DNA of 64,000 nt from Patescibacteria group bacterium. GTDB taxonomy: Bacteria > Patescibacteriota > Patescibacteriia > 2-02-FULL-49-11. The notes under the pieces are model-generated. The model saw only the letters and a program-made list of their open reading frames with translations, was not told the origin of the DNA and did no database searches. How positions within the stretch are numbered: the first letter of the stretch is position 1; each line of letters begins with the position of its first letter. The stretch lies in the NCBI GenBank assembly GCA_041645165.1, contig JBAZQN010000003.1, forward strand, positions 28,198 through 92,197, read 5' to 3'. This document shows, piece by piece, positions 1,585 to 17,707 of the stretch. The position numbers were made by a program, and so were the translations under genes.

Positions 1585-1592
1585 ATTCGCAT

Positions 1593-1684: not shown

Positions 1685-1720
1685 AATGATGCGTGTTTCC
1701 CCAACGGGAAACCCGAATGA

Positions 1721-2980
1721 CTAGGCGTGTTTGCCAATGAGCATCCCGAGCGCTTCCCAAAACCCCGGATACGATTTGCTCACCACTTCCGCGTCCTGTA
1801 TCACCGTCTCCCCATCTGCCGCAAGCCCGGCAACCGCAAATGCCATTGCCATCCTATGGTCGCCGTGCGGATCAATCACTGCGCCTTTCAACTTTCCTCC
1901 GTGTATTTTTAACGAATCACCGTTCACCTCCGCGCGTATGCCCATCTTGGCAAGTTCTTCCGCAGGCGCGGCAAGGCGATCGCTCTCCTTCCCGCGCAGA
2001 TGGCCAATGTGGGTGATCACGCTCATACCCGGCGCAACCGCGGCAAGCACCGCAAGGGTAGGCACGAGATCAGGAACGTCGCAGCCGTCCACAGAAAATG
2101 GTTTTACTGATTTTGCGCCGCGCACCACCACTGCATTACGCTCATACTTTACTTCACATCCTACGCTGCGCAGAATGTCCAGTACTTTCCTATCCCCTTG
2201 CACAGATTCAGGCGCAAGTCCCAAAACCTTGACTTCGCCGCGAGTGACTGCGGCTGCGGCAAACCAATACTGTGCCGAAGAATAATCCCCTTCTATGGCA
2301 TACCTCCGTGCACGATACGATTGCCCCGGCTCAACCGTGAATTGATTGCCTTTCTGTTCTACCGCCACGCCAAGCTCTTTCAAAAGCGCGATCGTCAAAT
2401 CAATATACGGCCGTGAGTATATCGGCTCTTCCACTGCAATAGTCATTCCTTGCGGTAAGAAAGGTGCGATCATGAGCAGCGCAGATACAAATTGCGAACT
2501 GACATTTCCCGGCAGCCTCACCTTGCCGCCTTGCAATGCGCCTCCCCGTACCGTGATCCTCTTCGGCTCTTGGGTCACTTCTGCCCCCAACGTTTGAAGC
2601 GCATCATACAGTGGCTGCAAGGGGCGCTCTAACAATCGCACACCGCCGGTAATGATTGTTTCGCCTGGCGCCAGCGCTGCTAACGCGAGCGCAAATCGCA
2701 AGGTGGTGCCGGAAAGGCCGCATTCGAGGGGCCTTGAAGGAATACATAATGTCCCACCTGTGCCTTGCACTACCAGCTTTAATTCTTCCTGCTTTATTGA
2801 CGCGCCGAAACCCCTGCACGCGTCCATAGTTGCTTCCGTGTCATCCGCGTACAATATATTAGTTAACACAGATTCTCCTTTTGCGAGCGTTGCGAGCACT
2901 ATTGCGCGGTGCGTAATGCTCTTGGAGGGAGGCGTGACCACGACTCCTTCTATCTTTCCTGGAATTACAGTGACTTGCAT
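1721..2980 (-). CDS. aroA: 3-phosphoshikimate 1-carboxyvinyltransferase (EPSP synthase)
   Basis: KSITHRAIVLATLAKG...CGLSGTTLRFALALAAL motifs of class II EPSPS; start at MQVTVIPGK assumed (ORF to 3013). Confidence 0.88.
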   Translation of the reverse strand: MQVTVIPGKIEGVVVTPPSKSITHRAIVLATLAKGESVLTNILYADDTEATMDACRGFGASIKQEELKLVVQGTGGTLCIPSRPLECGLSGTTLRFALALAALAPGETIITGGVRLLERPLQPLYDALQTLGAEVTQEPKRITVRGGALQGGKVRLPGNVSSQFVSALLMIAPFLPQGMTIAVEEPIYSRPYIDLTIALLKELGVAVEQKGNQFTVEPGQSYRARRYAIEGDYSSAQYWFAAAAVTRGEVKVLGLAPESVQGDRKVLDILRSVGCEVKYERNAVVVRGAKSVKPFSVDGCDVPDLVPTLAVLAAVAPGMSVITHIGHLRGKESDRLAAPAEELAKMGIRAEVNGDSLKIHGGKLKGAVIDPHGDHRMAMAFAVAGLAADGETVIQDAEVVSKSYPGFWEALGMLIGKHA

Positions 2981-3087
2981 AATAAGCTTTATATTAGCGA
3001 GGATTGCTCTCACACAAACCCTCCGCAGACTCCGCCGGCATGGTGTCCGACGTAACGTCGGACCGGCGGAGGCGAGGCGGAGTGCGG

Positions 3088-3582
3088 TCAGCCGCTGGGC
3101 TGACCGACACGTGTTTGTGCTGAGGCAAGCCTCGCGACCAGATTCTCTAACCCTACCACGTAACTCTGCTCTTTTAACCCCATGACCCTTTCCGCCGCAA
3201 TATCGGCAATCACGGAAATCCTCCGGAACGGCTCCCGGTGCTCAATGTTAGACAAATGCACCTCCACGAGCGGAAGACCGGCGTCAACAAGCGCGTCCCT
3301 CAAGGCATAGCTGTAATGGGTGAGCGCCCCGGGATTGATGAGAATTCCATGCGCACCTCCCGCCTGTGCTTGAATAAAATCAATGAGCGCTCCTTCATGG
3401 TTTGACTGGAAAAACACGAGTTCTATCACCTCATGCCCCTCGCTTAATCTCCCTGCCTTCGCGCGCAACATATCCTCAATCGCACCCAACGTGAGCGAAC
3501 CGTACTGTACGGGGTCGCGTCTCCCCAGCATATTTAAATTTGGCCCGTTGATTACTAAAATACGCATAAGTTCATTGTTCAT
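3088..3582 (-). CDS. aroQ: 3-dehydroquinate dehydratase type II
   Basis: MRILVINGPNLNMLGRRDP...HLSNIEHREPFRR canonical type II DHQase motifs; 164 aa (start may be the Met at ~3567). Confidence 0.9.
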   Translation of the reverse strand: MNNELMRILVINGPNLNMLGRRDPVQYGSLTLGAIEDMLRAKAGRLSEGHEVIELVFFQSNHEGALIDFIQAQAGGAHGILINPGALTHYSYALRDALVDAGLPLVEVHLSNIEHREPFRRISVIADIAAERVMGLKEQSYVVGLENLVARLASAQTRVGQPSG

Positions 3583-3610
3583 TATTTGTAGCGGACTTGA
3601 ACCCAGAGGC

Positions 3611-3687
3611 GAAGGAATACCAATTTGTCGAGGATTTAGGCGCGAGGGTCGCTAGATCGCGTCCGCAGAAAAATTGTGTATTCCTGA
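3611..3687. repeat. family-2 TIR-bounded element, copy A
   Basis: gaaggaataccaattt(g/t)tcgaggatttaggcg...cgcgtccgcagaaaaattgtgtattcctga; imperfect ~17-bp terminal inverted repeats (aggaataccaattttt / aaaattgtgtattcct). Copies also at 5601-5676 and 50407-50504. Confidence 0.6.
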
Positions 3688-3717
3688 CCAAGAAACAACC
3701 TGGGTGAGCAAATACCA

Positions 3718-4821
3718 TTATTCACTGTTGAACATCCCTCGCAATGCTTCATGTACAATCTTACGCGGCACCTTGACCCCCGCCCTCGCCTTCCCAATCT
3801 TCTCCAACAGCACCCACCTTACGCTGCCACCTTGCGCCTTTTTATCATGCTGAAGAATATTTATCAGTCTTGCGATGTTCGTACGCGCGGGCAATCTCGT
3901 GGGTAGATTATAATGCGCCAATAACGATTCTACACGCGCGCAATCCTGCGTATTGAAACCTAATAATTCATTGCTTATCCTTACCGCCGCAACCATGCCG
4001 ATGGCGATTGCTTTGCCGTGCGGGAGTAAAAAATTGCTCATACTCTCCAGTGCGTGTCCCACGGTATGCCCGAAATTTAATAGTACCCTCTCGCCTTTTC
4101 GGTCGTTCGGGTCCCGCGCAACCGCCGCCGCCTTCGCCCGTACGCAAAATCCCACCACTTCGTCCCAGGGCATGCGATTGAAGGCACACTCCTCCAATCG
4201 CGCCGTGAATGTGCGGCTGCCTATCAATCCGTATTTAATTACTTCCGCCATGCCGTTAATAAGCTCATCTTGAGGGAGCGTCCTTAAAAACGTGGTGTCG
4301 CATACCACTGCCTTCGGCTGGTGAAACGTGCCAATCACATTTTTTATGCCCCGAAAGTCAACGCCGGTTTTGCCGCCAATCCCGCTGTCCACTTGTGCTA
4401 AAAGCGTTGTTGGCACCTCAATATAATCTATGCCTCGCAAATAAACGGACGCCACAAAACCCGTGAGGTCGCCTACCACGCCGCCGCCCAGCGCAACGAG
4501 GATGCCGTAACGATCAACTTTTTTCTGCTGCAGTATGCGCAAGCATCGCTCGGCAATGCGCAGTTCTTTCGAACGTTCTCCCGGCCTCAGCACAATGGTA
4601 TGCACGGGCACGCGCCCTTCGCGCAAGGTTCTCAAAACCCTTCCGTGCAGGCGCGCAACCGTGCGATCGGTAATGAGAACCACAGAGGTACGGGCATTGC
4701 CCCGTGCGAACTGAGGCAAAACGGCAAGCGCCCGATTTCCCGCGATGAGCGCACACGTGTTTTTCGCTGTTACGCGATAATGTATACGGATCATACCCCG
4801 TATATCAATATCCAACGCCAA
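3718..4821 (-). CDS. aroB: 3-dehydroquinate synthase
   Basis: GGGVVGDLTGFVASVYLRGIDYIEVPTTLLAQVDSGIGGKTGVDF NAD/metal-binding motifs of DHQS. Confidence 0.9.
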   Translation of the reverse strand: MALDIDIRGMIRIHYRVTAKNTCALIAGNRALAVLPQFARGNARTSVVLITDRTVARLHGRVLRTLREGRVPVHTIVLRPGERSKELRIAERCLRILQQKKVDRYGILVALGGGVVGDLTGFVASVYLRGIDYIEVPTTLLAQVDSGIGGKTGVDFRGIKNVIGTFHQPKAVVCDTTFLRTLPQDELINGMAEVIKYGLIGSRTFTARLEECAFNRMPWDEVVGFCVRAKAAAVARDPNDRKGERVLLNFGHTVGHALESMSNFLLPHGKAIAIGMVAAVRISNELLGFNTQDCARVESLLAHYNLPTRLPARTNIARLINILQHDKKAQGGSVRWVLLEKIGKARAGVKVPRKIVHEALRGMFNSE

Positions 4822-5029
4822 ACGTGGTTGGCATTGAAGTAAGCTTTAACATGAAAGCGACCTTGGTGTATTGAATCATAGTAAAATTTGTAGATAACGT
4901 TTGGCGATCAGTGAGGGAGGCTATGTAAAAATCTGCAATACGGTCAATCCTCATCCAGTAGTACTCCATCTATATTCTGCTTAAAGATTCCCGCCTCCCT
5001 CTTGGATGTTGTATTTCGGGGCATATGGT

Positions 5030-5317
5030 TCAGCGCTTTTGTGTCTGGCGCGATGATGCAATGATAATACCCATAAGCGTACGCACCTTTGACGCCGGGA
5101 GGCCCAGGGACCTGCCAAACTTCACGGCGCATGCGATTACCCGTTGTTCCCTTTCCCTGTCTTTTAAAGAAAGAGACTGGTCTAGTTTTAGTTTGCCGAT
5201 TTCACGCGCAACCTTCAAGCGCCTGGACCACAATCGCAATAAGGCGCGGTCAAGAGCGTCAATCTGTTTCCTTAAATGAGTGAGTGATTTAGAGTTCATA
5301 GGCTGCTCCTCGCTCAT
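5030..5317 (-). CDS. chorismate mutase (AroQ class)
   Basis: LRKQIDALDRALLRLWSRRLKVAREIGKLK matches CM type 2 helical motif; ~90 aa; immediately downstream of pheA. Confidence 0.7.
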   Translation of the reverse strand: MSEEQPMNSKSLTHLRKQIDALDRALLRLWSRRLKVAREIGKLKLDQSLSLKDREREQRVIACAVKFGRSLGLPASKVRTLMGIIIASSRQTQKR

Positions 5318-6310
5318 ACGTCCCCAACACCGTGAGGGTAACCGCTTCGTGCCTCAAGGCAGAGAGCGCCCGCGTGAGCGCTTCAGGCGAGAAGGTGTGT
5401 TCAAAATCCACATAGAACAAATATTCCCACGGCTTGCCGAGCAAAGGGCGCGATTCGACTTTGGTAAGATTCATGCCCCTGCCTGCGCACTGCACGAGGA
5501 AACGTGAGAGGCTCCCCGCGACGTGCGGAAGCGTGAGCAGGAGCGATACTTTATTTCCTTTCACCGCGGATAGTAAGTACTCACCGGCTTCAACGCGATG
5601 CGAAGGAATGCCAATTTTTCGAGGATTTAGGCGTTCAAGCTGCTTGGTCGCGTCCGCAGAAAAATTGTGCATTCTGAAGCGGGATGACTTTGGATGAGCA
5701 GTTATCGCAGATATCGGCTTTTTTGCAGGTTTTATAATAGCGCCGAAGCGGGTATAATTCTCGCGATCGGTCTCAATATGGTCGGCAACTACCGACAAGC
5801 CGTACAATGACGCCGCCACCCTGCTCGCGATTGCCGCCTCATCCTGGCGCCTACGGAGCGCCACCTCCCGCGCCGCGCCCGCGGTATCGCGGAATGATAT
5901 AACTTCTATCCAGGGATGGCGCTTAAGAAATTCCTCGCATTGGTCAAGCGCTTGAGGATGCGAGTAGACGCGCCGGATTTGGCGGATTCTTTTCGCGCCG
6001 CCCGCGTGCGCAGAATTTGCAAGCAGGTTATGGGATATGCGCAAAAATATTTCTCCGTCCAAGACAAGCGAGTGGCGTGCAAGCAAATCATAAATGCGAT
6101 GGATGGTGCCGGCGACCGAATTCTCCAAAGGCACGATACCCTGCAGAGCCTTGCCTTTTGCCACTGCCTTGAAAACCTCGTCAAATGAGGGACAAGGTAT
6201 CATCGCCGCGTGTATCCCAAAATATTTCTGTGCCGCGATTTCGCTGTACGCGCCATGTTCTCCTTGGAAAGCGATTTTATTCCGTTTAGGTAATGAATTT
6301 TTTGTCATAA
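5289..6310 (-). CDS. pheA: prephenate dehydratase with C-terminal ACT domain
   Basis: NKIAFQGEHGAYSEIAAQKYFG PDT N-terminus and VSLLLTLPHVAGSLSRFLVQCAGRGMNLTKVESRP ACT motif; start at MTKNSLPKRNKIAF assumed (ORF open to 6476). Linker contains in-frame family-2 repeat. Confidence 0.85.
5601..5676. repeat. family-2 TIR-bounded element, copy B, inside pheA coding sequence (in frame)
   Basis: gaaggaatgccaatttttcgaggatttaggcg...cgcgtccgcagaaaaattgtgcattctga; translated on minus strand as [34 protein letters not shown] within PheA linker. Confidence 0.65.
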
Positions 6311-6480
6311 TTTCTTTCCTACCTTTCTCTCTTCTTAGAGCGAGTGTTGGCTGTAACGAAAAGCGTCTCGGAGGTTTTGCGGGCATGGGTCCCGCGAAGC
6401 GGGAGAGCAAAACCGAGAGCCGAGCGGTAATTTCCTCGCTGGGGAAATTGACCGCGTCTTTTCGTGGCGGCCACACTCGC

Positions 6481-7401
6481 TTACGTCGCCACCGTTCTTC
6501 CTATCGCGCCCGCAATGGTATTTATTTCTCGCATCAGCTGGTTAAGCGCCTCAATGGATATCGCTTGCTCTGCGTCTGAAATGGATTTATCCGGATCTAT
6601 GTGGCACTCGATAAGCAGCCCGTCTGCCCCCGCGGCAATGGCCGCTCTACTCATCGCGGGCACCAAATCGCGCCTGCCAGTACCGTGTGAAGGGTCCACG
6701 ATGATGGGCAAGTGGGTTTCATTTTGCAAATAAGGCACCGCATTCAGGTCAAGCGTAAACCGCAGCTCAGTGACATGCGTGCGGATGCCGCGTTCGCAGA
6801 GCATCACATTTGCATTGCCTCCGGTGAGAATATATTCTGCGGCGAGCAAAAATTCCTTGTAGGTGGAATGCATGCCGCGCTTTAAGAGCACGGGATGTTT
6901 TGTGCGCCCGACCTCTCGCAAAAGTGTATAATTCTGCATGTTCCGCGCGCCGATTTGGAGTATGTCCGCATATTCCACAATAAGATCCACATCCCTGGGG
7001 TCCATCACTTCCGTGATGGAGCGCAATCCAGTAGAACGCGCCGCTTTCTGGAGAAGCTGGAGCCCTCTCTTCCCCAACCCTTGGAAATCATACGGGCCGG
7101 TGCGGGGCTTAAATGCCCCACCGCGCAGCACCGTGCCGCCCGCCTCTTTTACCGCTTTCGCAATCAGCGTAATCTGCTCTTCGTTTTCCACCGAACACGG
7201 CCCTGCCATTATCACCACCTGCGGCCCTCCCACCAGCAGCCCTTGCACGTCAATCACTGTCTTCTCATCTCCGGAAGTATGCGCAAGCCGGTATGGTTTG
7301 AGAGGAGACGACTCTGCAGGCAATATTCCGTTGTCACTCTTAGGTGATTCTAACACTGTTTTCACTCTCTTAATGACTTTTTCTTTCATGATAGTTGGCA
7401 T
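6481..7401 (-). CDS. 3-deoxy-7-phosphoheptulonate (DAHP) synthase, class I-beta / KDO8PS-like
   Basis: [14 protein letters not shown]...[17 protein letters not shown]...[20 protein letters not shown] typical of Bacillus/Thermotoga-type DAHP synthase; 306 aa. Confidence 0.85.
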
Positions 7402-7647
7402 ATGTGTGGCGTATAAAGGCGTAATAATGGCGTGAATTGGCTTCTATAAAACATTAAACTCCCCCGTGTTTGGGAGAGTCATACTATCGCGAGGCTTGAA
7501 CTATCTTTATTTATTCATATACGACAAATCTCCCAAACGGTTAGTCGGGCTAAAGAAAAACCAAAAATAATTGTTGGAGAATTGTGCGCTTTGCATAATT
7601 AAAAATTTATACTCTACCAAAACAGATAAAAGCTCCACTTTCTCTTT

Positions 7648-8031
7648 TTATTTAGCATTTTTATCCTTTTCTTCGGAGGACGTCTGCATACCAAGCCTAT
7701 CTCTTTCAAAATCAGAAACTGCTTTGAGCGCTTCATCTGCGCGCTGTTTAAGTTTATCGTACTCTTCATTGAGTGCTCCTGCTTCCTCCTGACCAGCCCC
7801 AACCAGCTTATTCAGTCTCTGCCGTAAGAGCGCCATGTACTCATAGTTATGCGACAAACCCTGCCTCTTTGTCCTCTCCCAAAATTCTGTCACTGGTGCA
7901 TCTTTCGATAGTCCTTCTTTTCTCACTTGATCCGTTTCTTCATGCATGGATTTATTTTCCTCTGCGACTTGCCTAGCATCATCATATACTTCTGCGACTT
8001 TCTCTGGATCCCAATTTTCTTTTTTCCACAT
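7648..8031 (-). CDS. hypothetical charged helical protein
   Basis: 127-aa ORF, highly charged (E/K/R rich), no recognisable motif. Confidence 0.45.
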   Translation of the reverse strand: MWKKENWDPEKVAEVYDDARQVAEENKSMHEETDQVRKEGLSKDAPVTEFWERTKRQGLSHNYEYMALLRQRLNKLVGAGQEEAGALNEEYDKLKQRADEALKAVSDFERDRLGMQTSSEEKDKNAK

Positions 8032-8046
8032 AGGTGCAAAATTTAT

Positions 8047-8169
8047 TCACGACCGCTGATCTCCGGACGCGTCTTTCTTCTCCTTATAGAAGAGTGTCGG
8101 CCATGAAATCGCCACAAGCCCTGCCAGGATGATGGCGAGTATGATGATAATGTGTGCGTAGGGATTCAT
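8047..8169 (-). CDS. possible small single-TM peptide
   Basis: ATG..TGA ORF MNPYAHIIIILAIILAGLVAISWPTLFYKEKKDASGDQRS (40 aa), hydrophobic core; not in provided track (below size cut-off). Confidence 0.25.
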   Translation of the reverse strand: MNPYAHIIIILAIILAGLVAISWPTLFYKEKKDASGDQRS

Positions 8170-8224
8170 ACACTTTTATTAAACATCTTCACGAAACAAT
8201 ATTACCACACGCCTTATAACCATG

Positions 8225-8596
8225 TCAAATCGGGCGGACGGAAAGGTCGGGAATCCTTCGAAAATCGCGCACATTCCTCGTCACGAGACTCGTGCCAGTG
8301 AAGAGCGCAGTGGCAGCAATCGTGCTGTCCGCGAGTGAGAGGCGATAGGTGCGCCGGATAAATCCAGTGATGCGTGCAATGCGCGAGTCGAGCGAAATCA
8401 CCGCGAGCGTGCTCAATAACCTTTCGATCCGATTTTCTTCCTCGATACTCAAATCCGGAAATCCGAAAAGTTCCGCCTCGGTGAGCGCCGACACATACAC
8501 GGTGATCGGCTCGTTGAGCAGTCCGCTCAAGATTGCGGCCGCATGAGGGTCGTCCTTGAGGTAATAGATGATCGCGTTGGTGTCGAGCGTGTACAC
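8225..8596 (-). CDS. vapC: PIN-domain toxin (VapC-like)
   Basis: YTLDTNAIIYYLKDDP...SLADSTIAATALFTGTSLVTRNVRDF: PIN acidic residues (D..E..D..N/D) pattern; start likely GTG ~8596 just after upstream antitoxin stop (track ORF extends to 8638). Confidence 0.7.
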   Translation of the reverse strand: MYTLDTNAIIYYLKDDPHAAAILSGLLNEPITVYVSALTEAELFGFPDLSIEEENRIERLLSTLAVISLDSRIARITGFIRRTYRLSLADSTIAATALFTGTSLVTRNVRDFRRIPDLSVRPI

Positions 8597-8610
8597 AAAC
8601 AGAATGTGCG

Positions 8611-8814
8611 CTACGCCTCCGCTGACGTCCGCTCCCACTCACGACGCATCTTCCGCAAGGTGAGGATGGGATCGGGTTTCCGGCGCTTCCACATCCCGCG
8701 TGCCTGTTCCCAGACGCGTGTACGGTCATTGCCGCGCAGGAGTAAGCGAAGATTCGCTTCCGCGTCACCTTTTGTACGTTCTTTTATTGGAGTCGAAATG
8801 ACAGAATATGACAT
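8611..8814 (-). CDS. putative antitoxin partner of VapC
   Basis: 67-aa ORF ending 14 bp before the PIN gene start, basic C-terminus (WKRRKPDPILTLRKMRREWE); classic TA gene arrangement. Confidence 0.5.
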   Translation of the reverse strand: MSYSVISTPIKERTKGDAEANLRLLLRGNDRTRVWEQARGMWKRRKPDPILTLRKMRREWERTSAEA

Positions 8815-8907
8815 AAAACGCCTTTTATAACCCTTACATCAATATAACTATACCCCATTCTCAAGCGTCCATCAAGTGTGTGGGGGTACTGTGTGCGGGG
8901 TACTACG

Positions 8908-9735
8908 TCAATTTATCCCTTCGCCTGCGTCCACCAACGTCCTCAAATATTTCTTTACCGCATCAATCCCTTGCCCCTGCGGCACTTTATTAAACACATC
9001 CAGCACCGCGCTGCCGACGATGGCGACATCAGCCCCCGCCTCTTTGAGTGTCTTGATATGCTCATGTGTTGAAACGCCAAATCCCACCGCGATGGACACA
9101 TCCTTATGCGCCCGAATTCTTTGAAGATGGTGCGCAAGCTCCTTATGGAGCGACGCGCGCGCGCCGGTCGTTCCTTTCTGCCCGATGAAATAGAGAAACT
9201 GGTTTGGCTTATCCAGTACTTTCTCAACTCGCTCGTCCGTGCTCACGGTGGAAAGAAACCGCATCGCTACTAAACCAGAACGCGCTGCGTGCTCCAAAAA
9301 ATGATCATGCGCTTCTTCATCAATCGGAATATCAGGAACGATGAGCCCGCTCACCCCCACCTCTGCCGCATCTCTACAAAATTGCTCGACGCCGTAATGA
9401 AAGACAAGATTAAAATACGTCATAAATAGGAGAGGTATTTTACAGTGTGCCCCAACCAAATTCTGCGCCGCGGCAAACGCATCCTTCACCTTGAATCCTC
9501 TCTTAAGCGAGACTTCATTTGCCTTCATTATCGTCGGCCCGTCAGCCAAGGGATCTGAAAAAGGAATCTGCAGCTCGATAAAATCAACGCCCGCCCCTGC
9601 CATCGCATGCACAAGCCCAATGGAATCCTGCAGCGACGGATAGCCCAAGACAATATGGGCCATGATCCCTAATCTTTTCTCCTCTTTTATTTTATTGAGT
9701 CGTGTAATAATCTTGTTCATATTCACGTGTGTCAT
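8908..9735 (-). CDS. trpA: tryptophan synthase alpha chain
   Basis: GIMAHIVLGYPSLQDSIGLVHAMAGAGVDFIELQIPFSDPLADGPTIMKA canonical TrpA motifs (start may be the Met at 9720). Confidence 0.9.
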   Translation of the reverse strand: MTHVNMNKIITRLNKIKEEKRLGIMAHIVLGYPSLQDSIGLVHAMAGAGVDFIELQIPFSDPLADGPTIMKANEVSLKRGFKVKDAFAAAQNLVGAHCKIPLLFMTYFNLVFHYGVEQFCRDAAEVGVSGLIVPDIPIDEEAHDHFLEHAARSGLVAMRFLSTVSTDERVEKVLDKPNQFLYFIGQKGTTGARASLHKELAHHLQRIRAHKDVSIAVGFGVSTHEHIKTLKEAGADVAIVGSAVLDVFNKVPQGQGIDAVKKYLRTLVDAGEGIN

Positions 9736-9833
9736 TCCCGCGAAGGCGGGAATCTAGAAAAAAAACAAACATAAAAATCGATCGTTTTCTTTTTGTTTTT
9801 TAGTTCTGGATCCCGTATCAAGTACGGGATGAC
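9731..9833. repeat. family-1 TIR-bounded palindromic element, copy b
   Basis: gtcattcccgcgaaggcgggaatctag...aaacaaacataaaaatcgatcgttttctttttgtttttt...ctggatcccgtatcaagtacgggatgac; right arm contains trpB last codons and TGA stop. Confidence 0.65.
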
Positions 9834-11119
9834 GGTAATGTTGACCTTCTCTTTAAGTATTCCTTCCAAATCTGCCCGCCGAATATATCCCCGAGAATAA
9901 ACAAATCTTTATCACCGCGTCCCGACATATTCACGACGATGATTTTTTCTTTGGATAAGGTGGGTGCAAGTTTCACGACATGCGCGAATGCGTGTGCCGA
10001 TTCAAGCGCGGCAAAGAGCCCCTCCATGCGCGCCAGAGCTTGAAATGCACTGAGCGCTTCCTCGTCGGTCGCCGACACATACTGCACTCTTCCCTTCTGG
10101 TAAAGCAGCCCATGCTCCGGCCCGATCCCCGCATAATCAAGGCCCGCAGAAATGCTATGCGTGTTTTGTATTTGCCCGTCTTCGTTCTGCAGAAAATAAG
10201 ACTTATATCCTTCAACAACCCCAAGCTTGGGATCGCGGGCTAGGCGCGCCGCGTGCTTCCCTGTTGATGTCACTCCCTCGCCCCCTGCCTCCACGCCAAT
10301 AAGACGCACGGAAGGCTCTTCCAAAAAGGTGTTGAAAATGCCTATGGCATTACTGCCGCCGCCCACGCACGCGATCACATAATCAGGGAGTTCTCTGCCT
10401 GTTTGTGCCTTTAACTGCTCCCGCACCTCAAGCCCCACAATATTCTGAAAATCGCGCACCAGAGAAGGGTAAGGGTGCGGGCCTAAAGCGCTTCCCAACA
10501 GGTAATAGCTCTCATCCACGTTCGCGATCCAGTCTTGGATGGCAGCCGTGACTGCGTCTTTTAAGCGTTTAGTGCCATGGGCAACCGGCACTACCTCAGC
10601 GCCCAATTGCTCCATCCAGAATACGTTCGGCCGCTGCCGTTCATAATCCACCTCGCCCATGTAGACGGTGCATGCAAATCCAAACTTCGCCGCGACCGTT
10701 GCGGCCGCCAGCCCATGCTGTCCCGCGCCTGTTTCTGCGATTAGGCGTTTTTTGCCCATGCGGCGAGCAAGGAGCGCCTGCCCCAGACAATGGTTCATCT
10801 TGTGCGCGCCGGTATGGTTTAATCCTTCATTTTTAATAAAAATATTCGCGCCGCCTAAGTGCGCGCTCAAATTTCGCGCAGAGGTAAGCGGCGTGGGGCG
10901 GCCGGAATAATTCTGATAGAGATCCATAAGCTCGCTCAAGAAAGTAGGATCATTTTTCGCGGTTGCATAGGCGCGCTCAAGCGCGAGTAACGCCGGCATC
11001 AAATTTTCCGGCACATACCTACCACCCAGCTCGCCAAAATGCCCCTGCGCGTCTGCATCGTACGGTGTGGAGAAAAAAATGTTCTTCACCCCGTTAGAAA
11101 TTTGTTTTGCATCTTGCAT
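9818..11119 (-). CDS. trpB: tryptophan synthase beta chain
   Basis: HFGELGGRYVPENLMPAL...HTGAHKMNHCLGQALLA...GGGSNAIGIF PLP-fold TrpB motifs; 433 aa. Confidence 0.9.
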   Translation of the reverse strand: MQDAKQISNGVKNIFFSTPYDADAQGHFGELGGRYVPENLMPALLALERAYATAKNDPTFLSELMDLYQNYSGRPTPLTSARNLSAHLGGANIFIKNEGLNHTGAHKMNHCLGQALLARRMGKKRLIAETGAGQHGLAAATVAAKFGFACTVYMGEVDYERQRPNVFWMEQLGAEVVPVAHGTKRLKDAVTAAIQDWIANVDESYYLLGSALGPHPYPSLVRDFQNIVGLEVREQLKAQTGRELPDYVIACVGGGSNAIGIFNTFLEEPSVRLIGVEAGGEGVTSTGKHAARLARDPKLGVVEGYKSYFLQNEDGQIQNTHSISAGLDYAGIGPEHGLLYQKGRVQYVSATDEEALSAFQALARMEGLFAALESAHAFAHVVKLAPTLSKEKIIVVNMSGRGDKDLFILGDIFGGQIWKEYLKRRSTLPSSRT

Positions 11120-11227
11120 AATATTTCATCCCTGTTAGAAGTCTTTCTTGTGATTTCTAACGGGGTTAATAAACAATATGACCATTTAGCCATGTATACT
11201 CGATTGCTATTCAAATTTCGATTGCAT

Positions 11228-11392
11228 CGTCGTTCCCGCCCCGTATCACGGTACGGGGTAAACCATGGCCTCGCGCAGGCGGGGCTCTTGCGGGAATCCA
11301 GACGCCGTCCTCGACCGAGATCGGGAAAAACCAAAAGAAAATCGATTTTTGCTTGTTTTTTATGTCTGGATTCCAAATCAGGTCTGGAATGA
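11228..11392. repeat. family-1 element, copy c (with nested extra hairpin module)
   Basis: gtcgttcccgcc[ccgtatcacggtacggggtaaaccatggcctcgcgcaggcgggg]ctcttgcgggaatc ... ctggattccaaatcaggtctggaatgac; same nested module as copy d. Confidence 0.6.
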
Positions 11393-11437
11393 CAATCGAA
11401 ATTGGGTTGGCAATTTATTATAACCATTACGCTATTT

Positions 11438-12073
11438 CTATTTTGCGTTTTTAATAAACAATCGTACCTTTCGCATATCTTTCACCCCCGGTTTAACTTC
11501 AACTCCGCCCGAGGCATCAATAATTCGCGATCGCGTAAACTTGATGCCATCATGGATATTTTCTGGTGTCAACCCGCCGGAGAGCACCACCTCATATCCC
11601 GCTTCAACAAGCTCACGCGCGAAGTTCCAGTCAGCACGCTTTCCGCTCCCGCCTGCCCCGTGCATTGGATTTTTTGCATCAACCAGCAGCACCTCAACGA
11701 CACTCGCGTAGTGCAGGTAATTTTGCCGCGTCACCGCTTTCCATATTATTACCCCTCGTTTTCGCAGCCGATTAACGTAGGCCGTTGTTTCATTCCCATG
11801 CAATTGCCAAATACTGATTCCCGATTCCTCGATTAACCTGCACAACCGTTCAAACGGCAGATTCACCACCACCCCCACCGTACGGGCAGAAAATTTTCTG
11901 CCCCTACACCTATTATTTACCGCCTCCTGTATCTCCCGAGCTTTCTCTCCCGTAACGCTTCTTGGACTCTTAGGAAATTCTATAACACAGCCTACAAAGT
12001 CCGCGCCTTGCCGCGCGATTTCCCGCGCCTGCGCGGGCAGTGTCACACCGCAAATTTTTACCTTTACGTTCAT
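11438..12073 (-). CDS. trpF: phosphoribosylanthranilate isomerase
   Basis: MNVKVKICGVT...position in trp operon between trpC and trpB; TIM-barrel PRAI signature KICGxT. Confidence 0.85.
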   Translation of the reverse strand: MNVKVKICGVTLPAQAREIARQGADFVGCVIEFPKSPRSVTGEKAREIQEAVNNRCRGRKFSARTVGVVVNLPFERLCRLIEESGISIWQLHGNETTAYVNRLRKRGVIIWKAVTRQNYLHYASVVEVLLVDAKNPMHGAGGSGKRADWNFARELVEAGYEVVLSGGLTPENIHDGIKFTRSRIIDASGGVEVKPGVKDMRKVRLFIKNAK

Positions 12074-12098
12074 ATCCGAAATATAAAACTTATTAGGC

Positions 12099-12920
12099 TT
12101 ATTCTGCCAACGATAACGCTCTGACCATATTTACAGGATCGCCCGATTTCATCAGCGCTTCCCCCACCAATACAGCGCGTACACCAGCATGGTGCCACTT
12201 CCGTACTATTTCAGCTGATACAACGCCGGACTCGCCGATCAGTAAGGGCAAAAAATCTTTTGCCCCTACGGCACGTGTCGCCGTTCTTGCCAATCTCACC
12301 ACCCTATCCACATCCACCGTCAAATCAACCAGACTCCGCGCGTTTATCCCGATAATTTCTGCGCCAATCTTCATGGCACGTTCAAAATCCTCCTCTTGTT
12401 CCACTTCCACCAATACCTGAAGCCCAAGCGCACGGCTTAATTGAAAGAGCCTTTTTAGTTCATCGTCTTCAAGCCATCTGGTAATAAGGAGCACGAGATC
12501 TGCGCCTGCCGCCTTGGATTCATACACCTGATACTCGCTGATGATGAAATCTTTGCGCAAAAATGGCATGGAGGGGAAACTCTCTTTCAGTTGCTTCAAT
12601 TCTTCCAATGAACCGTTAAAATAATTCGGCTCGGTAAGCACGGATATGGCGACTGCGCCGCCATCCACGTACGCCTGCACCTGCGCCAGATGGTCGCGGC
12701 CGCTGATCATGCCTGCGTTCGGGCTTGCGTGCTTGATCTCACCGATAACCGCGACAGGGCTCTGCCGCCTTACGATGCGTTCCTTTATGTCAACGAGGAG
12801 CAGTGTCCGCACGGCCGCTAGCCGCTTCAAATCCTCCAAAGGAACAGCCGCCTCTTCTTTCTGAACGCGTTCCTGAATGATTGGATAAATTTTTCCTAAA
12901 AATCCATTCAAATTTTTCAT
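12099..12920 (-). CDS. trpC: indole-3-glycerol phosphate synthase
   Basis: IGEIKHASPNAGMI...AISVLTEPNYFNGSLEELK...FLRKDFIISEYQV IGPS motifs; start at ATG 12918-12920 (track ORF begins TTG 12926). Confidence 0.9.
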   Translation of the reverse strand: MKNLNGFLGKIYPIIQERVQKEEAAVPLEDLKRLAAVRTLLLVDIKERIVRRQSPVAVIGEIKHASPNAGMISGRDHLAQVQAYVDGGAVAISVLTEPNYFNGSLEELKQLKESFPSMPFLRKDFIISEYQVYESKAAGADLVLLITRWLEDDELKRLFQLSRALGLQVLVEVEQEEDFERAMKIGAEIIGINARSLVDLTVDVDRVVRLARTATRAVGAKDFLPLLIGESGVVSAEIVRKWHHAGVRAVLVGEALMKSGDPVNMVRALSLAE

Positions 12921-12928
12921 ACTCAACT

Positions 12929-13074
12929 GTCATTCCCGCCCCGTATGCCGCTACGGGGTAAACCATGGCCTCGCGAGGCGGGGCTCCGGCGGGAATCCAG
13001 ATAAATAACAAACATGAATTACCGATCGTTTTCTTTTTGTTTTATCTAGATCCCGTATCTCGGTACGGGATGAC
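12929..13074. repeat. family-1 element, copy d (with nested hairpin module)
   Basis: gtcattcccgcc[ccgtatgccgctacggggtaaaccatggcctcgcgaggcgggg]ctccggcgggaatccag...aacaaacatgaattaccgatcgttttctttttgtttt...gatcccgtatctcggtacgggatgac. Confidence 0.65.
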
Positions 13075-13099
13075 AACAGGACGTATTCGTGCCCGATAA

Positions 13100-14122
13100 T
13101 CAACTTTTCAACCTATTACTCACCTCAATAAACTTTTCCAACAACTTCGTCGCTTCCCCATTCGTCACTGCCTCTCTCGCTATTGCAATCCCTTCTCCAA
13201 CATCCTTCGCTTGCCCCGCCACATACAACGCCGCACCGCTGTTGAAAAGCACCGTATCAAGCCGCGCTCCTTTCTCTCCCGAGAGCACGGCACGGATAAT
13301 CGATGCATTCTCCTGTACATCACCACCTCTCAGGTCATTGTTCGTCGCGTGCGAAAAACCGTAATCCTGCGGATCTAAGACATACTTCTCGATAATTCCT
13401 CGCTTCACTTCATACGCGTCAGCAGTGGCCGTAGTGGTAAGCTCGTCGTGCCCATCCCCACTGCGCACTACCATTGCGTGTTCGCTGCCTAAAAGCCGTA
13501 GAGTTTGCGCAATTATCTGCATCTTCGCGGGATCGGCAATGCCGATAATTTGCCGCCGCGGCATCGCGGGATTCACGAGCGGCCCTAAGATATTGAACAG
13601 CGTGCGCACTCCAAGCTCTTTCCGCACTGGCCCCACCTTCGCAAACGCAGGGTGATACAGAGGCGCGAAGAGAAACACAATACCCGCTTCTTCTAAACAG
13701 CGGCTTGCCTGCGCGGGCGTGAGATTAATATTCACACCCAGCGCTTCCAGGACGTCCGCGCTCCCGCACGCGCTCGAGACCGCCCGGTTGCCGTGTTTTG
13801 CCACTTTCACTCCGCACGCCACGACGACCAGCGCGGTTGCCGTAGAAATGTTGAAAGTGCCTCTGCCATCGCCGCCAGTCCCGCACGTATCAAAAACTTC
13901 CGTGTGTGCGCCGGGTAAGGCTATTGCGTGGGTGCGGAGCGACCGCACAAAACCCACGATCTCCTCTGCAGTTTCGCCTTTTATGCGAAGTGCTACCAAC
14001 AATGCGGCAATCTGCGCAGGGGTATAGTCCCCTCCTATAATCGTTTCCATCACTAGCTCTGCCTCTGTTAAAGTAAAGCTCTCTCGATTGAGTATTTTGT
14101 TGAGTATTTCAGAGTATATCAT
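13100..14122 (-). CDS. trpD: anthranilate phosphoribosyltransferase
   Basis: AALLVALRIKGETAEEIVGFVRSLRTHA...DTCGTGGDGRGTFNISTATALVVVACGVKVAKHGNRAVSS TrpD signature. Confidence 0.9.
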   Translation of the reverse strand: MIYSEILNKILNRESFTLTEAELVMETIIGGDYTPAQIAALLVALRIKGETAEEIVGFVRSLRTHAIALPGAHTEVFDTCGTGGDGRGTFNISTATALVVVACGVKVAKHGNRAVSSACGSADVLEALGVNINLTPAQASRCLEEAGIVFLFAPLYHPAFAKVGPVRKELGVRTLFNILGPLVNPAMPRRQIIGIADPAKMQIIAQTLRLLGSEHAMVVRSGDGHDELTTTATADAYEVKRGIIEKYVLDPQDYGFSHATNNDLRGGDVQENASIIRAVLSGEKGARLDTVLFNSGAALYVAGQAKDVGEGIAIAREAVTNGEATKLLEKFIEVSNRLKS

Positions 14123-14697
14123 AGGCCTAAAAAATTCTTTATTAAATCCATACCCAATTCCGTCCTAATCGATTCGGGATGGAACTGAATACCCTCAATA
14201 GGAAATTGGCGATGCCGCACGCCCATGATCTGCCCGTCATCCTTTGCGAGGGCCGTAATCTCGAGGCATGCAGGGAGGCTTTCCCTCTCGCCCGCGAGAG
14301 AATGATAGCGCATGCCCTGCAAGGGACTGGCAAGACTCTTGAAAATACCTTTTCCTTCGTGCACGATAAGGCTCACTTTGCCGTGTTTGACGACTGGCGC
14401 GCGCACCACGCGCCCCCCAAACGCCGCAATAATCCCCTGATGCCCGAGACACACGCCCAACACCGGCGTCGTTTTTCCGCATTCAAGAATAACGTCTTTA
14501 CATACACCGAAGTATTGGGGGTCCGTAGGATCGCCCGGGCCCGGGGAAATGACGACATGGGTATACCCTCCTCCCCTCACGTCATCTAATGTGACTGCAT
14601 CATTCCTTTCTACCACAGGATTTCCTCCCAACATCCCCACATATTGGTAGAGGTTGTAGGTGAATGAATCGTAGTTGTCGATAATAAGTATTTTCAT
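14119..14697 (-). CDS. trpG: anthranilate synthase component II (glutamine amidotransferase)
   Basis: MKILIIDNYDSFTYNLYQYV...GVCLGHQGI class I GATase triad context; 4-nt overlap with trpD. Confidence 0.9.
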   Translation of the reverse strand: MKILIIDNYDSFTYNLYQYVGMLGGNPVVERNDAVTLDDVRGGGYTHVVISPGPGDPTDPQYFGVCKDVILECGKTTPVLGVCLGHQGIIAAFGGRVVRAPVVKHGKVSLIVHEGKGIFKSLASPLQGMRYHSLAGERESLPACLEITALAKDDGQIMGVRHRQFPIEGIQFHPESIRTELGMDLIKNFLGL

Positions 14698-14867
14698 AAT
14701 CTTTCTTCTTCCCTTCTCCTCCTAGTGGGCGGGGTTAATCTCAGAGTGAGGATTAGCCGTTGAAAAACCCTCCGCAGTCCCGCAGTGGCGGGACGAGGCG
14801 GAGTGCCCCGCCGCGCTGGAGGCGGGGACGCGTGTTTTTCCAACGGACAAGCCGAACGACTGTACGT

Positions 14868-16169
14868 TCACACTCGCGCACACGCTACCGCCTGTTGTAT
14901 TGCCCTCTGTTTATTCATAATCTCCTCATATTCCTTCTCGCACACCGAATCATACACAATCCCGCTTCCTGACCTGGTATATGCCTTGTTGCCTGAGACA
15001 AAGAGCGAACGGATCGCAATCGCAAACATCGCATCGCCATTCACGCTAAAATATCCGACAGACCCCCCGTACAAACCGCGCGGGCTCCTCTCCAATGCGG
15101 CGATTATTTTCATTGCCTCAATCTTGGGCGCGCCAGTGAGCGTGCCTGCGGGGGCGCACGCCGCCAGAACATCAAAACTGTCCAACCCTTTGCGCAGAGT
15201 CCCGCGTATTTCTGTCGATAAATGCTGCACATGGCTATAGCGCTTCACTGCCATGAGCCCTTCTACGCGCACGCTCCCGAACTCCGCCACCCTGCCGACG
15301 TCATTGCGCGCCAAATCCACGAGCATCATGTGTTCTGCCACTTCCTTTTCGTCGGATTTTAATTGCGCCGCAAGACGCTCATCCTCTTGCCTGTCTGCGC
15401 CGCGCTTTATGGTCCCGGCAAGCGTGCCAAAATGCTCAATTGCGTGCCCCTTGGTCCTGAATAACAATTCCGGCGATGCACCCAGCGCATACCTTTCCCG
15501 GAACTTCATACAATACATGTGCGGCGAAGGATTAATTTCGCGCAGGTTCCCGTACACCGCGACTGGCGATCCTGCACACTCATACTCAAACCCCACAGAA
15601 AATACAATCTGAAATGCATCGCCCCTCCCCACATGCTCTTTGATTGATGCAAACGCCTCTTGGTATTGCGGCAGCGACATATCCGAGGTGTGCGATTCCA
15701 CCTCAAAACGGGGTGTCTCACCATGTTTTTTTAGCATCTCCTTGAACTGCGCTCTCCTGTCCTTTTCAAGCGTGAAGTACCGTATTGATTGCGTGTGCTT
15801 ATCAAAAATAAAACCATCAAGGTAGAGTCCGAACTCAAATTGGGGAAAATACGGCTGCTTTTTCCCCGAGAAAGCCGGTTCAAAAAGCGCCGTGCCGTCA
15901 TATGAGACATATCCCACCAGACCGCCATGATAATGCGGCGGCAGCCCCTCGACATGGGGAAGCAGACCCTTTAACGCGGCATAATCAGTAGTGGCATCAG
16001 AAACCACTGATTGCGGCTCCGCGCCAAGGTACGTGAAACGGGAAAACTCCGATTCCGCGCCAAGCGACTCAAGGATAAAAGCGTTTTCGCAGCGCTGTGC
16101 AAGCCTTTCAAATATCTCAAATGGCTTTAAATCGGTGCTAAATTCGAACTCTTGATATTGAAAACTCAT
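14868..16169 (-). CDS. trpE: anthranilate synthase component I
   Basis: 433-aa chorismate-binding enzyme (…GTLTGAPKIEAMKIIAALERSPRGLYGGSVGYFS…) at head of trp operon. Confidence 0.9.
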   Translation of the reverse strand: MSFQYQEFEFSTDLKPFEIFERLAQRCENAFILESLGAESEFSRFTYLGAEPQSVVSDATTDYAALKGLLPHVEGLPPHYHGGLVGYVSYDGTALFEPAFSGKKQPYFPQFEFGLYLDGFIFDKHTQSIRYFTLEKDRRAQFKEMLKKHGETPRFEVESHTSDMSLPQYQEAFASIKEHVGRGDAFQIVFSVGFEYECAGSPVAVYGNLREINPSPHMYCMKFRERYALGASPELLFRTKGHAIEHFGTLAGTIKRGADRQEDERLAAQLKSDEKEVAEHMMLVDLARNDVGRVAEFGSVRVEGLMAVKRYSHVQHLSTEIRGTLRKGLDSFDVLAACAPAGTLTGAPKIEAMKIIAALERSPRGLYGGSVGYFSVNGDAMFAIAIRSLFVSGNKAYTRSGSGIVYDSVCEKEYEEIMNKQRAIQQAVACARV

Positions 16170-16285
16170 AAGTATTCAATGGATACCACCCCTTATGTCC
16201 CCTCCTTACTAAGAGCCTGACCCGTGTTTATCACGGGGAGGGGGTAGGGAGGTCTCCTTAATTTAAAACCAATGGCGTACATAAC

Positions 16286-16313
16286 AAAAAACTGACCCCC
16301 TCTCGGGGATCAG
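16286..16313 (-). terminator. trp attenuator terminator hairpin + U-run
   Basis: Minus-strand gatccccgagagggggtcagttttttg; GC hairpin followed by T6, located between leader peptide and trpE. Confidence 0.6.
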
Positions 16314-16349
16314 TCAGCGTTAGGTAAGGTAAAAAATCTCTGGAATACC

Positions 16350-16415
16350 TCAAACCACTGATCTCCGAGAGAGACCAGTGCTCCACCAATTCAATTGCAC
16401 GTTCGTATATTTCAT
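16350..16415 (-). CDS. trpL: trp leader peptide with tandem Trp codons
   Basis: ATG AAA TAT ACG AAC GTG CAA TTG AAT TGG TGG AGC ACT GGT CTC TCT CGG AGA TCA GTG GTT TGA = MKYTNVQLNWWSTGLSRRSVV*; WW codons overlap first stem of alternative hairpins. Confidence 0.6.
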   Translation of the reverse strand: MKYTNVQLNWWSTGLSRRSVV

Positions 16416-16597
16416 ATTAAGTATCCACACTATAGCTCAGCATGATTTTTATGTCAAATTTCTTTCCCACTCCCCATAGTCATTGACAACTCTCTCTCTC
16501 TCTGCTTAACTGAACGTTAAAACTAATTCACAAATAGAGAGATTTTGTAATTCCTGCCCTTTGAAAACCTAGACGAAAAAATAGAGGAGAATTTGCC

Positions 16598-17707
16598 GTG
16601 GAAAATTTACACATCCAAACCGAAGGGTTTGCGGGATTCCTCATTCCTGCGATTGAAAAAATCATAAAAGTGGCATTCGATGTCCCGCTTTGCTGCACCA
16701 ACGCCGGAGAGAATTTAGATCAGGTCGTTGCCGAACTTATCGGCTCTAACCAAGTCCGGCAAGAAGGTGTACCCGTAACATCTGAGCTCCAACAAGGGGT
16801 TACCGAGATCGTGAAATATTACGTTGGCCTTCAACGTCCCATCCCCATTCTGACACCATGTGGAGGGAGAAAAACCATTTGTGGTCTCAGTATTGACGTG
16901 GCTGAACTTGTCGCGTTAAAAATGCTCATGTGTCTTCAACGGCGGGTACAGCAACATTATCCTCCAGGGTTGGAAATTCGTATACGAATTGAGGATATGG
17001 GCGCACTCCATCTCTTTAACCGAGATGATATCGCAACAAATCGACGCACGGTGAATGAGTATGCGAACGATTTCAGCTCATTAGTTCACATACTTGGGTT
17101 CGACTTATTACCGATACCGGAAAGCACTTTCATGGACGAGAAGCAGTACTCGGCTCTCGCCGACAGCTTCATCCCGCTATTGGAAGCTTATATCGTTGAG
17201 TCCGATGAGCACGGGCTTGATGCTTATGAGCGACTTCCCTGTTGGAAACAGTTGGCAGAAGTGGGGTGGACCGGTCCTATTCCGATTGAACAACGGGAAT
17301 ACTATCGTTCCCGTTACCGGGTACTCTATCCCGGCATTACGCCAGCCCAAGCAACGGAAATGCTGGCTCGTTATTTTGCCGGGTCGTTGGCAAGATACAA
17401 ACTGAACGGAACCTGCGTAGGTGACCTTGAAGGAAAATACATTCAAGTCACCTTCATGTGCCCGATTCCAGGTGTTCCTCCCGAAATGGTCTGGCGAAAT
17501 ATCTACTACCGCACGCTCCCGACCAAATTGGCGCGCACCCACATTCCCTTCTGGCGAGGAAAGGGGTACTTGCGAGTTCAGGGCGATACTGTTTGCCCAA
17601 AACTCGCGAGTTGGAGCGAACAGCTCAAATACAATCCCGCCTCAATTACTCTCTCCAACCAAAATTTAGCGGTAACCCTCGCCGCCGATTATGTAATCAT
17701 GCATTAA
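16598..17707 (+). CDS. hypothetical protein (369 aa), divergent from trp operon
   Basis: Long GTG-initiated ORF with good coding look, RBS-like aggag 8 bp upstream; no motif I can assign confidently. Confidence 0.6.
   Translation: MENLHIQTEGFAGFLIPAIEKIIKVAFDVPLCCTNAGENLDQVVAELIGSNQVRQEGVPVTSELQQGVTEIVKYYVGLQRPIPILTPCGGRKTICGLSIDVAELVALKMLMCLQRRVQQHYPPGLEIRIRIEDMGALHLFNRDDIATNRRTVNEYANDFSSLVHILGFDLLPIPESTFMDEKQYSALADSFIPLLEAYIVESDEHGLDAYERLPCWKQLAEVGWTGPIPIEQREYYRSRYRVLYPGITPAQATEMLARYFAGSLARYKLNGTCVGDLEGKYIQVTFMCPIPGVPPEMVWRNIYYRTLPTKLARTHIPFWRGKGYLRVQGDTVCPKLASWSEQLKYNPASITLSNQNLAVTLAADYVIMH

Follow-up and report, generated by a model that had tools for sequence, protein, structure and literature searches.

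The window analysed here, the whole stretch of 64,000 nucleotides (nt) from a Patescibacteria group bacterium (contig JBAZQN010000003.1 of assembly GCA_041645165.1), carries the tryptophan operon trpEGDCFBA, the first gene of which, trpE (14868–16169), is preceded by a short leader with the anatomy of a ribosome-mediated transcription attenuator. The operon ends with trpA at 8908, and all window coordinates of the leader and of the trp and aro region given below refer to the minus strand. The leader opens with the highest-scoring promoter-like site within positions 1–16600, TTGACA-17-TATAGT (16457–16429), which consists of a −35 hexamer TTGACA (16452–16457) and a −10 hexamer TATAGT (16429–16434) that together match in 11 of 12 positions in the promoter scan, with a spacer of 17. 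A conserved block, GTGGATA (16428–16422), lies directly after the −10 hexamer and probably holds the transcription start. The leader open reading frame (ORF; 16350–16415) starts 13 nt past the end of the −10 hexamer, with its ATG at 16415, and comprises 21 codons followed by TGA (16352–16350); the predicted peptide, MKYTNVQLNWWSTGLSRRSVV, includes two tandem Trp codons, TGG TGG (16383–16388), as the putative regulatory codons. No Shine–Dalgarno (SD) sequence precedes this ORF. Its absence is no objection to attenuation, since SD-like motifs are found before only four of the 45 long ORFs in the window, a scarcity that suggests SD-independent initiation in the host lineage. An AU-rich start context such as (GTCG)TATATG is common to many starts in the window and also occurs 5′ of the leader ORFs and trpE genes of relatives.

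Folding and a terminator scan define four RNA segments downstream of the Trp codons. Segment 1 (CACTGGTCTCT, 16370–16380) begins 2 nt past the second Trp codon and forms the 5′ arm of hairpin 1:2 (11 bp, −15.9 kcal/mol), while segment 2 (GGAGATCAGTG, 16356–16366) serves both as the 3′ arm of this hairpin and as the 5′ arm of a predicted antiterminator, 2:3; the leader stop codon begins 3 nt beyond segment 2. Segments 2 and 3 are separated by a 42-nt linker with a small hairpin, GAGGUA(N14)UACCUU (16326–16351), which shortens the loop closed by 2:3. Segment 3 (CTGATCCCC, 16305–16313) is the 3′ arm of the antiterminator and the 5′ arm of an intrinsic terminator that is completed by segment 4 (GGGGGTCAG, 16292–16300) and a U6 tract (16286–16291). 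The terminator, CUGAUCCCC-GAGA-GGGGGUCAG at 16313–16292, has a GAGA loop and a 3:4 free energy of −16.6 kcal/mol; its stem is 9–11 bp long, the scan extending it to 11 pairs over 16315–16290, and it is the highest-scoring structure of its kind within positions 1–16600. In the minimum free energy (MFE) fold of the 145-nt leader, 1:2 and 3:4 are formed together (−45.2 kcal/mol, z = −3.1 relative to dinucleotide shuffles). The alternative pairing joins GGAGAUCAG to CUGAUCCCC in eight of nine positions, and the 2:3 state, which is available ahead of the synthesis of segment 4, has a predicted energy of −27.2 kcal/mol. The distance from the terminator to trpE is ∼120 nt, and in the MFE structure this 5′ untranslated region (UTR) of trpE contains a long irregular hairpin (16181–16257; CCCCUCC.../...GGAGGGG, with an inner stem CCCCGUG..CACGGG).

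A sequence-only reading of the window had proposed an attenuator of this kind, and most of its details hold: the 21-codon ORF with tandem TGG (ATG 16415, TGG TGG 16388–16383), the 3:4 GC hairpin followed by T6, recovered by the terminator scan at 16315–16290, and the eight-of-nine pairing between segments 2 and 3. The constrained folding that it put forward as a check agrees with it, giving 1:2 plus 3:4 at −45.2 kcal/mol and, with segments 1 and 4 excluded, 2:3 at all 11 of the loci introduced below. Two details need correction. The Trp codons were placed inside stem 1 and in fact end 2 nt 5′ of it, and the segment 4 that was quoted, ‘ctcgggggtcag’, does not literally occur in the sequence, the actual string being gaga followed by gggggtcag.

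DNA was sampled around every locatable TrpE relative at 50–89% identity. A scan of genome contigs gave one close relative only (L001); the other loci were reached by exact-protein look-ups. The same leader, which the earlier reading had suggested seeking in related genomes, precedes trpE with the same anatomy at ten of ten other distinct loci with 63–89% identical TrpE (L081, L082, L083, L001, L084, L085, L086, L089, L090 and L092). It is mainly this conservation that makes the leader more than a chance arrangement, and these ten loci and the window constitute the set of 11 attenuator loci considered here. The promoter TTGACA-17-TATAGT is kept at nine of the 11, with a variant, TTGACA-17-TATTAT, in L089. 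In L083 (2238–2320), the conserved TTGACA-17-TATAGTGTGGATAAG promoter is absent and short AACGCAGAT-like repeats lie directly 5′ of the leader ATG instead. The leader ATG is 6–13 nt past the end of the −10 hexamer in six loci, including the window, and 24–26 nt past it in four.

An in-frame ORF of 18–25 codons from ATG to stop, containing (Q)LNW[W/R], is found at all 11 loci. The peptides of the relatives are MEHTGVQLNWRNTGLSRRSVV (L081), MKHAFAQLNWRNTGLSRRSVD (L082), MIKTINMQLNWWNTGLSRRSVS (L083), MMNILVQQNWWNTGLSRRSVG (L001), MSYKLNNIPLNWWNTDLSRRSAS (L084), MLYRLNTTQLNWWGLISSRRSGSLA (L085), MLHRFTISQLNWWNVDLS (L086), MQMMLFISANAWWNWLGKRAR (L089), MSYRYNVRQLNWWDTGLSRRSVS (L090) and MFEEIKQLNWWGAGLSREIR (L092). 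Their N-terminal residues vary freely, and the spacing from the ATG to the first Trp codon is 27, 30 or 33 nt at every locus. Nine leaders contain WW (WWNW in L089); L081 and L082, the two closest relatives (TrpE 89% and 82% identical, respectively), have Trp–Arg (TGG CGG) at this place. The Trp codon or codons end 2 nt 5′ of segment 1 at nine loci and 0–1 nt from it in L085 and L086, and the stop codon, which may be TGA, TAA or TAG, is located −14 to +9 nt relative to the 3′ end of segment 2. The C-terminal portion of the peptide differs wherever the RNA arms differ (TGLSRRSVV, GLISSRRSGSLA, NVDLS, NWLGKRAR) and, since it changes along with these arms, selection in this portion appears to act on the RNA, in addition to the Trp codons. 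This pattern is that expected of a translated ORF in which the Trp codons would be the sole selected codons, with the remainder constrained as RNA. A scan of metagenome DNA with the degenerate pattern AAYTGGYGGNNCNNTGRTCTCTC returned 32 stretches and no new members: chance matches to unrelated and mostly coding DNA accounted for 29, and the remaining three were L086 and L090 again.

When the 11 leaders are folded singly, hairpin 1:2 forms at −11.4 to −17.5 kcal/mol and the terminator 3:4, present at every locus and followed by a run of at least four U residues, at −8.6 to −18.9 kcal/mol. The weakest terminator (−8.6 kcal/mol) belongs to L083, in which the 2:3 pairing is perfect across 10 bp. 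Helix 1:2 of L085 and L089 is out of place both in an alignment with MAFFT (A1) and in one with a covariance model (A3), and a hand-anchored, N-padded alignment (A4) was therefore made; it was fitted to hairpins 1:2 and 3:4 and hence favours these two. On A4, 92.9% of the cells of 1:2 and 3:4 are paired, compared with 32–46% with slid partners, and seven pairs (10 cells) are altered on both sides, with none of 500 shuffles reaching any of these measures. The covariance-model alignment likewise gives 92.9% paired, with the two sequences misaligned. Helix 1:2 alone is 97.5% paired across the loci, with four pairs altered on both sides.

For the predicted antiterminator, folds from which segments 1 and 4 are left out join segment 2 to segment 3 at all 11 loci (−17.6 to −21.4 kcal/mol), and the 2:3 duplex is stronger than that formed with a shuffled segment 2 (z = −1.2 to −4.6). 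The linker between the two segments measures 27–44 nt and, in all 11 folds of this state, has a small hairpin of its own that sits inside the closed loop. On A4, 78.5% of the 2:3 cells are paired, compared with 23–49% when the partners are slid. The strongest evidence for co-evolution of segments 2 and 3 comes from L089, in which all four segments have shifted jointly from the CUGAUC/GAUCAG type to a CUGGCC/GGCCAG type: the 2:3 pairing of L089 itself has an energy of −14.8 kcal/mol, compared with −8.9 and −7.7 kcal/mol for cross-locus pairings. For L092, the corresponding values are −13.6 kcal/mol for its own 2:3 and −8.7 kcal/mol across loci.

The positions of the codons relative to the arms were considered with a ribosome mask, which covered the leader up to and including the 13th nt beyond the first base of the second Trp codon. 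Under this mask, the MFE structure contains 2:3 and lacks the terminator at eight of the 11 loci. Segment 1 starts 0–2 nt past the second Trp codon, a geometry in which a ribosome stalled there would disrupt 1:2 and one that has reached the stop codon would cover segment 2; the footprint sizes used in this argument are general knowledge.

A cmscan search of positions 16000–16700 against Rfam at E ≤ 10 found neither a T-box (RF00230) nor a Trp_leader (RF00513), giving only a chance-level match to Pab91, and at the gathering threshold Rfam has no match in any of 14 loci, the window and 13 related ones. The features that mark a T-box are a Stem I with a specifier loop and the motif AAnnnGGGUGGUACCGCG in the antiterminator bulge; the window leader has no T-box match at E ≤ 10. 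For the TRAP protein (MtrB) of Bacillus, whose sites comprise 9–11 (G/U)AG triplets spaced by 2–3 nt, the longest chain is one or two triplets in all 11 leaders. Together with the comparative and folding evidence, the lack of an Rfam T-box and of a triplet array supports the earlier classification of the element upstream of trpE as a classical attenuator and not a T-box or TRAP system. Two further candidates near the trpE start were rejected. A hidden T-box was considered on account of the string GGGGUGGUAUCC (16192–16181) and the T-boxes of relatives, yet it has no Rfam match at E ≤ 10, and the string belongs to the 5′ UTR hairpin and has no conserved counterpart in relatives. A second, translational switch, comprising a mini-ORF (GTG GTA TCC ATT GAA TAC TTA TGA) that overlaps the trpE ATG and an ‘SD’, AAGGAGGGG, sequestered in a hairpin, was dropped because the region is wholly different in relatives and the genome hardly uses SD motifs.

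T-box-like leaders are found in more distant relatives. The next named relatives of this TrpE are from Candidatus Gottesmanbacteria (∼48% identity), and six loci with 48–54% identical TrpE (L002–L004, L093, L128 and L130) have trpE leaders in which a specifier-like loop contains UGG and the motif AAGGUGGCACC is present. Full-length matches to the Rfam T-box model, all below its gathering threshold, place such leaders before trpE in L004 (2715–2939), L002 (746–942), L003 (2697–2930) and L130 (1245–1378), with a score of 43 bits for L004, scores of 32, 31 and 24 bits among the other three, and E values of 1e-6 to 0.1; in L093 (about 2150–2400) and L128 (about 600–930), the motif was recognized by eye only. 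With 24–43 bits against a gathering threshold of 93, these T-boxes are divergent and would be missed by standard annotation. A covariance model based on the attenuator (R1) gives exactly one forward-strand match per attenuator locus; it has no match in the T-box loci L002–L004 and L093, nor in a further five trpE loci from Patescibacteria. From these two sets of results, the attenuator appears to be confined, among the sampled loci, to one clade, with a T-box at the same position outside it. The sequence-only reading had taken the E. coli-type mechanism to be informative about lineage. The host, recognized by an identical TrpE, belongs to the Patescibacteria, and the mechanism therefore reveals little about lineage and is no pointer to Proteobacteria; at trpE, Patescibacteria that are more distantly related have T-box-like leaders.

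From the comparative and folding evidence, we consider it likely that the leader is a classical ribosome-mediated transcription attenuator of trpEGDCFBA, in which translation of the leader, stalling and the response to Trp are inferred. In the proposed mechanism, transcription would begin a few nucleotides past TATAGT and a ribosome would start on the 21-codon leader nearly at the 5′ end of the RNA, without an SD sequence. With ample charged tRNA-Trp, the ribosome would reach the UGA 3 nt beyond segment 2 and cover segment 2, or 1:2 would re-form upon its release; in either case 3:4 would pair and the hairpin with its U6 tract would terminate transcription ∼120 nt ahead of trpE. When Trp is scarce, a ribosome stalled with UGG in its A site would cover segment 1, which lies 2 nt downstream, leaving segment 2 free to capture segment 3 on its emergence with the aid of the linker hairpin. 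The terminator would then be blocked and RNA polymerase would continue into trpE. If the leader is not translated at all, 1:2 and 3:4 would both form and transcription would terminate.

Several observations weigh against such an attenuator. Covariation in 2:3 across the 11 loci is not above the shuffle control, being reached by 99–251 of 500 shuffles, with seven core pairs of the helix invariant or wobble-only, and an A·C mismatch breaks the helix in eight of the 11 loci; the support for 2:3 is conservation plus the joint shift of the segments in what is essentially a single lineage (L089). Masking of segment 1 leaves the terminator as the thermodynamic minimum at three loci (the window, L081 and L082), at which antitermination must be a kinetic effect, as it is in E. 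coli. The AUG of the leader would lie ∼5–7 nt from the 5′ end of an RNA that has no SD sequence, and its efficient translation is assumed. The tandem Trp codons, moreover, are not strictly maintained, as L081 and L082 carry a single predicted regulatory Trp codon. There is also a precedent for caution in Streptomyces coelicolor, in which candidate leader peptides of ilvB and leuA did not prove to be classical attenuators upon mutation (PMC1262725).

Some of these observations could be accommodated by other explanations. If 1:2 and 3:4 were two independent hairpins, a leaky terminator preceded by a 5′ stabilizer, a duplicated hairpin sequence would have produced the 2:3 complementarity as a by-product; segments 1 and 3 are indeed alike, as a duplication would make them, and 2:3 covariation cannot be distinguished from that of shuffles. 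However, the likeness of segment 1 to 3 and of segment 2 to 4 is kept down to 63% TrpE identity, the segments have shifted in concert in L089 and L092, which is not required of independent hairpins, and the positions of the Trp and stop codons relative to the arms are conserved, making this the least probable of the explanations considered. The retention of the whole structure in L081 and L082 despite the loss of the second Trp codon (TGG CGG), and the three loci at which the terminator remains the minimum with a ribosome on the Trp codons, might instead mean that the leader and terminator sense the general status of translation or coupling, or set a fixed basal level of termination, the Trp codons being incidental or vestigial. 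This seems very unlikely given that Trp is a rare residue and that at least one TGG is nevertheless found at the identical place in all 11 leaders, and two or three in nine of them; in addition, the operon makes Trp, and a companion leader before the aro and pheA genes (described below) is enriched in precisely the aromatic codons. A switch operated by a factor acting in trans, whether an RNA-binding protein or an uncharged tRNA binding a very degenerate T-box, would dispense with translation of the ORF altogether. In its favour, trpE has T-box-like control in more distant relatives, the leader lacks an SD sequence and starts almost at the 5′ end, and an RNA or DNA site could explain the conservation at the nucleotide level of CAATTGAAT 5′ of the Trp codons and of GTGGATAAG after the −10 hexamer. 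An untranslated ORF, on the other hand, can hardly account for ATG-to-Trp indels that are always multiples of three or for the use of all three stop codons at the same position; the peptide length is held at 18–25 codons, and the searches of the window leader for T-boxes and other Rfam families at E ≤ 10 and for TRAP-like triplet arrays were negative. We regard a trans-acting switch as marginally less probable than a general sensor of translation, and leader-peptide attenuation in response to Trp remains the preferred reading.

The sequence-only reading had also treated the trp and aro genes as a single 16-kb block that is Trp-regulated at its head, which does not agree with the features beyond trpA. 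The intervening region contains, in order, a promoter-like site (8875–8847), a gene for a PIN-domain (VapC-like) protein (8225–8638; Pfam PF01850, E = 9e-18), a second promoter-like site (8228–8199), an ORF without an assigned family (8031–7648) and a second leader ORF, from an ATG at 7596 to about 7507, encoding the predicted peptide MQSAQFSNNYFWFFFSPTNRLGDLSYMNK with the aromatic run YFWFFF. This ORF is followed by a terminator-like hairpin (7480–7457) located directly before the DAHP synthase gene (7401), and the 5′ arm of this hairpin has its complement in CCGUUUGGGAGA within the second leader. DAHP synthase is followed by genes for prephenate dehydratase, DHQ synthase, DHQase II, EPSP synthase, shikimate kinase and shikimate dehydrogenase. 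In L089 (1600–1730, minus strand), an analogous leader, MNTHRRNFYFYFWFNVNW (FYFYFWF..W), and a CUGGCCGUACGGCCGG-U6 terminator precede the DAHP synthase gene of that locus. Because the promoter-like sites, the PIN-domain gene, the ORF without a family and a Phe/Tyr/Trp-rich leader with its terminator-like hairpin intervene, the aro genes are probably controlled separately, by an aromatic-amino-acid attenuator of their own and not by the trp leader. The presence of a second, aromatic leader of the same design also strengthens the case for ribosome-mediated attenuation in this lineage. A small ORF around 8620–8815 lies upstream of the PIN-domain gene, and the two are a probable toxin–antitoxin pair with a putative antitoxin.

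A repeated intergenic hairpin element, CUGGAUUCCCGC...GCGGGAAUGACA, is scattered through the region. Its core occurs seven times in the window at up to one mismatch, compared with 1.5 expected, and copies are located at 1592–1602, 1675–1685, 9730–9740, 11384–11394, 12928–12938 and 48132–48164, and at 520–575 of L001. The element is often found directly before start codons, such as those of trpC, trpA and the shikimate kinase gene. A CUGGAUUCCCGC..GCGGGAAUGACA hairpin lies between the trp terminator and trpE in L001, L081, L082 and L090, and the trpE 5′ UTR hairpin of the window (16257–16181) looks like a diverged copy. The 170-nt spacer between trpE and trpG (14698–14867) is also highly structured (−71 kcal/mol) and holds a terminator-like GC hairpin followed by U5 (14785–14772). 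The corresponding spacers of relatives (L081, L083, L084, L090 and L092) contain quite different palindromes, those of L081 and L084 being long, AT-rich inverted repeats and those of L090 GC-rich, and the spacer resembles a hot spot within the operon for the insertion of palindromic elements.

Leader-peptide attenuation requires tight coupling of transcription and translation. Documented cases come mainly from Proteobacteria and some Actinobacteria (PMC1262725, PMC4833913), and a full-text literature search of incomplete coverage gave no report of leader-peptide attenuation or of a T-box riboswitch for the Patescibacteria or candidate phyla radiation (CPR). If the trp leader described here functions as interpreted, these uncultured bacteria with their reduced genomes would couple transcription with translation and control Trp synthesis through tRNA charging; T-box and leader peptide would be evolutionarily interchangeable at one gene within one group, and the switch would be workable on an mRNA without a Shine–Dalgarno sequence and almost without a 5′ UTR. 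The picture of the operon also changes, with the trp and aro genes probably under separate control. A broader proposal, for which we judge the chances to be even, is that a small clade of Patescibacteria has swapped the Trp T-box of its relatives for a leader-peptide attenuator with an SD-less, nearly leaderless leader and employs a second such attenuator, its leader rich in Tyr, Phe and Trp codons, for the DAHP synthase–pheA–aro genes. Ribosome-mediated attenuation would then be on record in the CPR for the first time, and the leader would be a natural example of attenuation that relies on initiation of the leaderless type only a few nucleotides past the transcription start. The findings are modestly new with respect to the host lineage, the SD-less and near-leaderless leader and the replacement of one regulator by the other. 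The mechanism itself is ordinary and, being textbook material, adds to what is known of distribution and evolution rather than of principle.

A close parallel is the E. coli trpL leader (the Yanofsky model; RF00513), which likewise combines a short ORF with tandem UGG codons, four segments that pair (in the window by prediction) as 1:2, 2:3 or 3:4, and a GC-rich terminator with a U-run before trpE. The predicted logic is also shared, stalling at Trp codons freeing segment 2 and completed or absent translation leading to termination. No sequence or structure homology to trpL is detectable (no Rfam match at E ≤ 10), however, and the layout differs in several respects: the Trp codons precede segment 1 by 2 nt, where those of trpL lie inside it; except in L086, the stop codon comes after segment 2, that of trpL falling between segments 1 and 2; the linker of 27–44 nt contains a hairpin; the AUG is SD-less and almost leaderless; and ∼120 nt with a further hairpin separate the terminator from trpE, in a host that belongs to the Patescibacteria. 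The trp attenuators of Corynebacterium and Streptomyces have double or triple UGG codons, GC-rich poly-U terminators and complementary triples common to the antiterminator and the terminator (PMC1262725). The CUGAUC/GAUCAG core of all four segments parallels these shared triples, although the cores differ (gGCC-rGCy-GGCC), the bacteria belong to another phylum and homology was compared via Rfam only. The Trp T-boxes of Patescibacteria (Gottesmanbacteria and relatives) regulate the same gene, trpE, with the same output through an intrinsic terminator upstream of it; unlike the window leader, they sense uncharged tRNA directly via a UGG specifier and AAGGUGGCACC and have no leader ORF. The second leader, with its YFWFFF run, resembles the pheA (pheL) and pheST attenuators of Proteobacteria in its design and Phe-rich regulatory codons and differs from them in mixing Tyr, Phe and Trp codons and in preceding a DAHP synthase–pheA–aro string.

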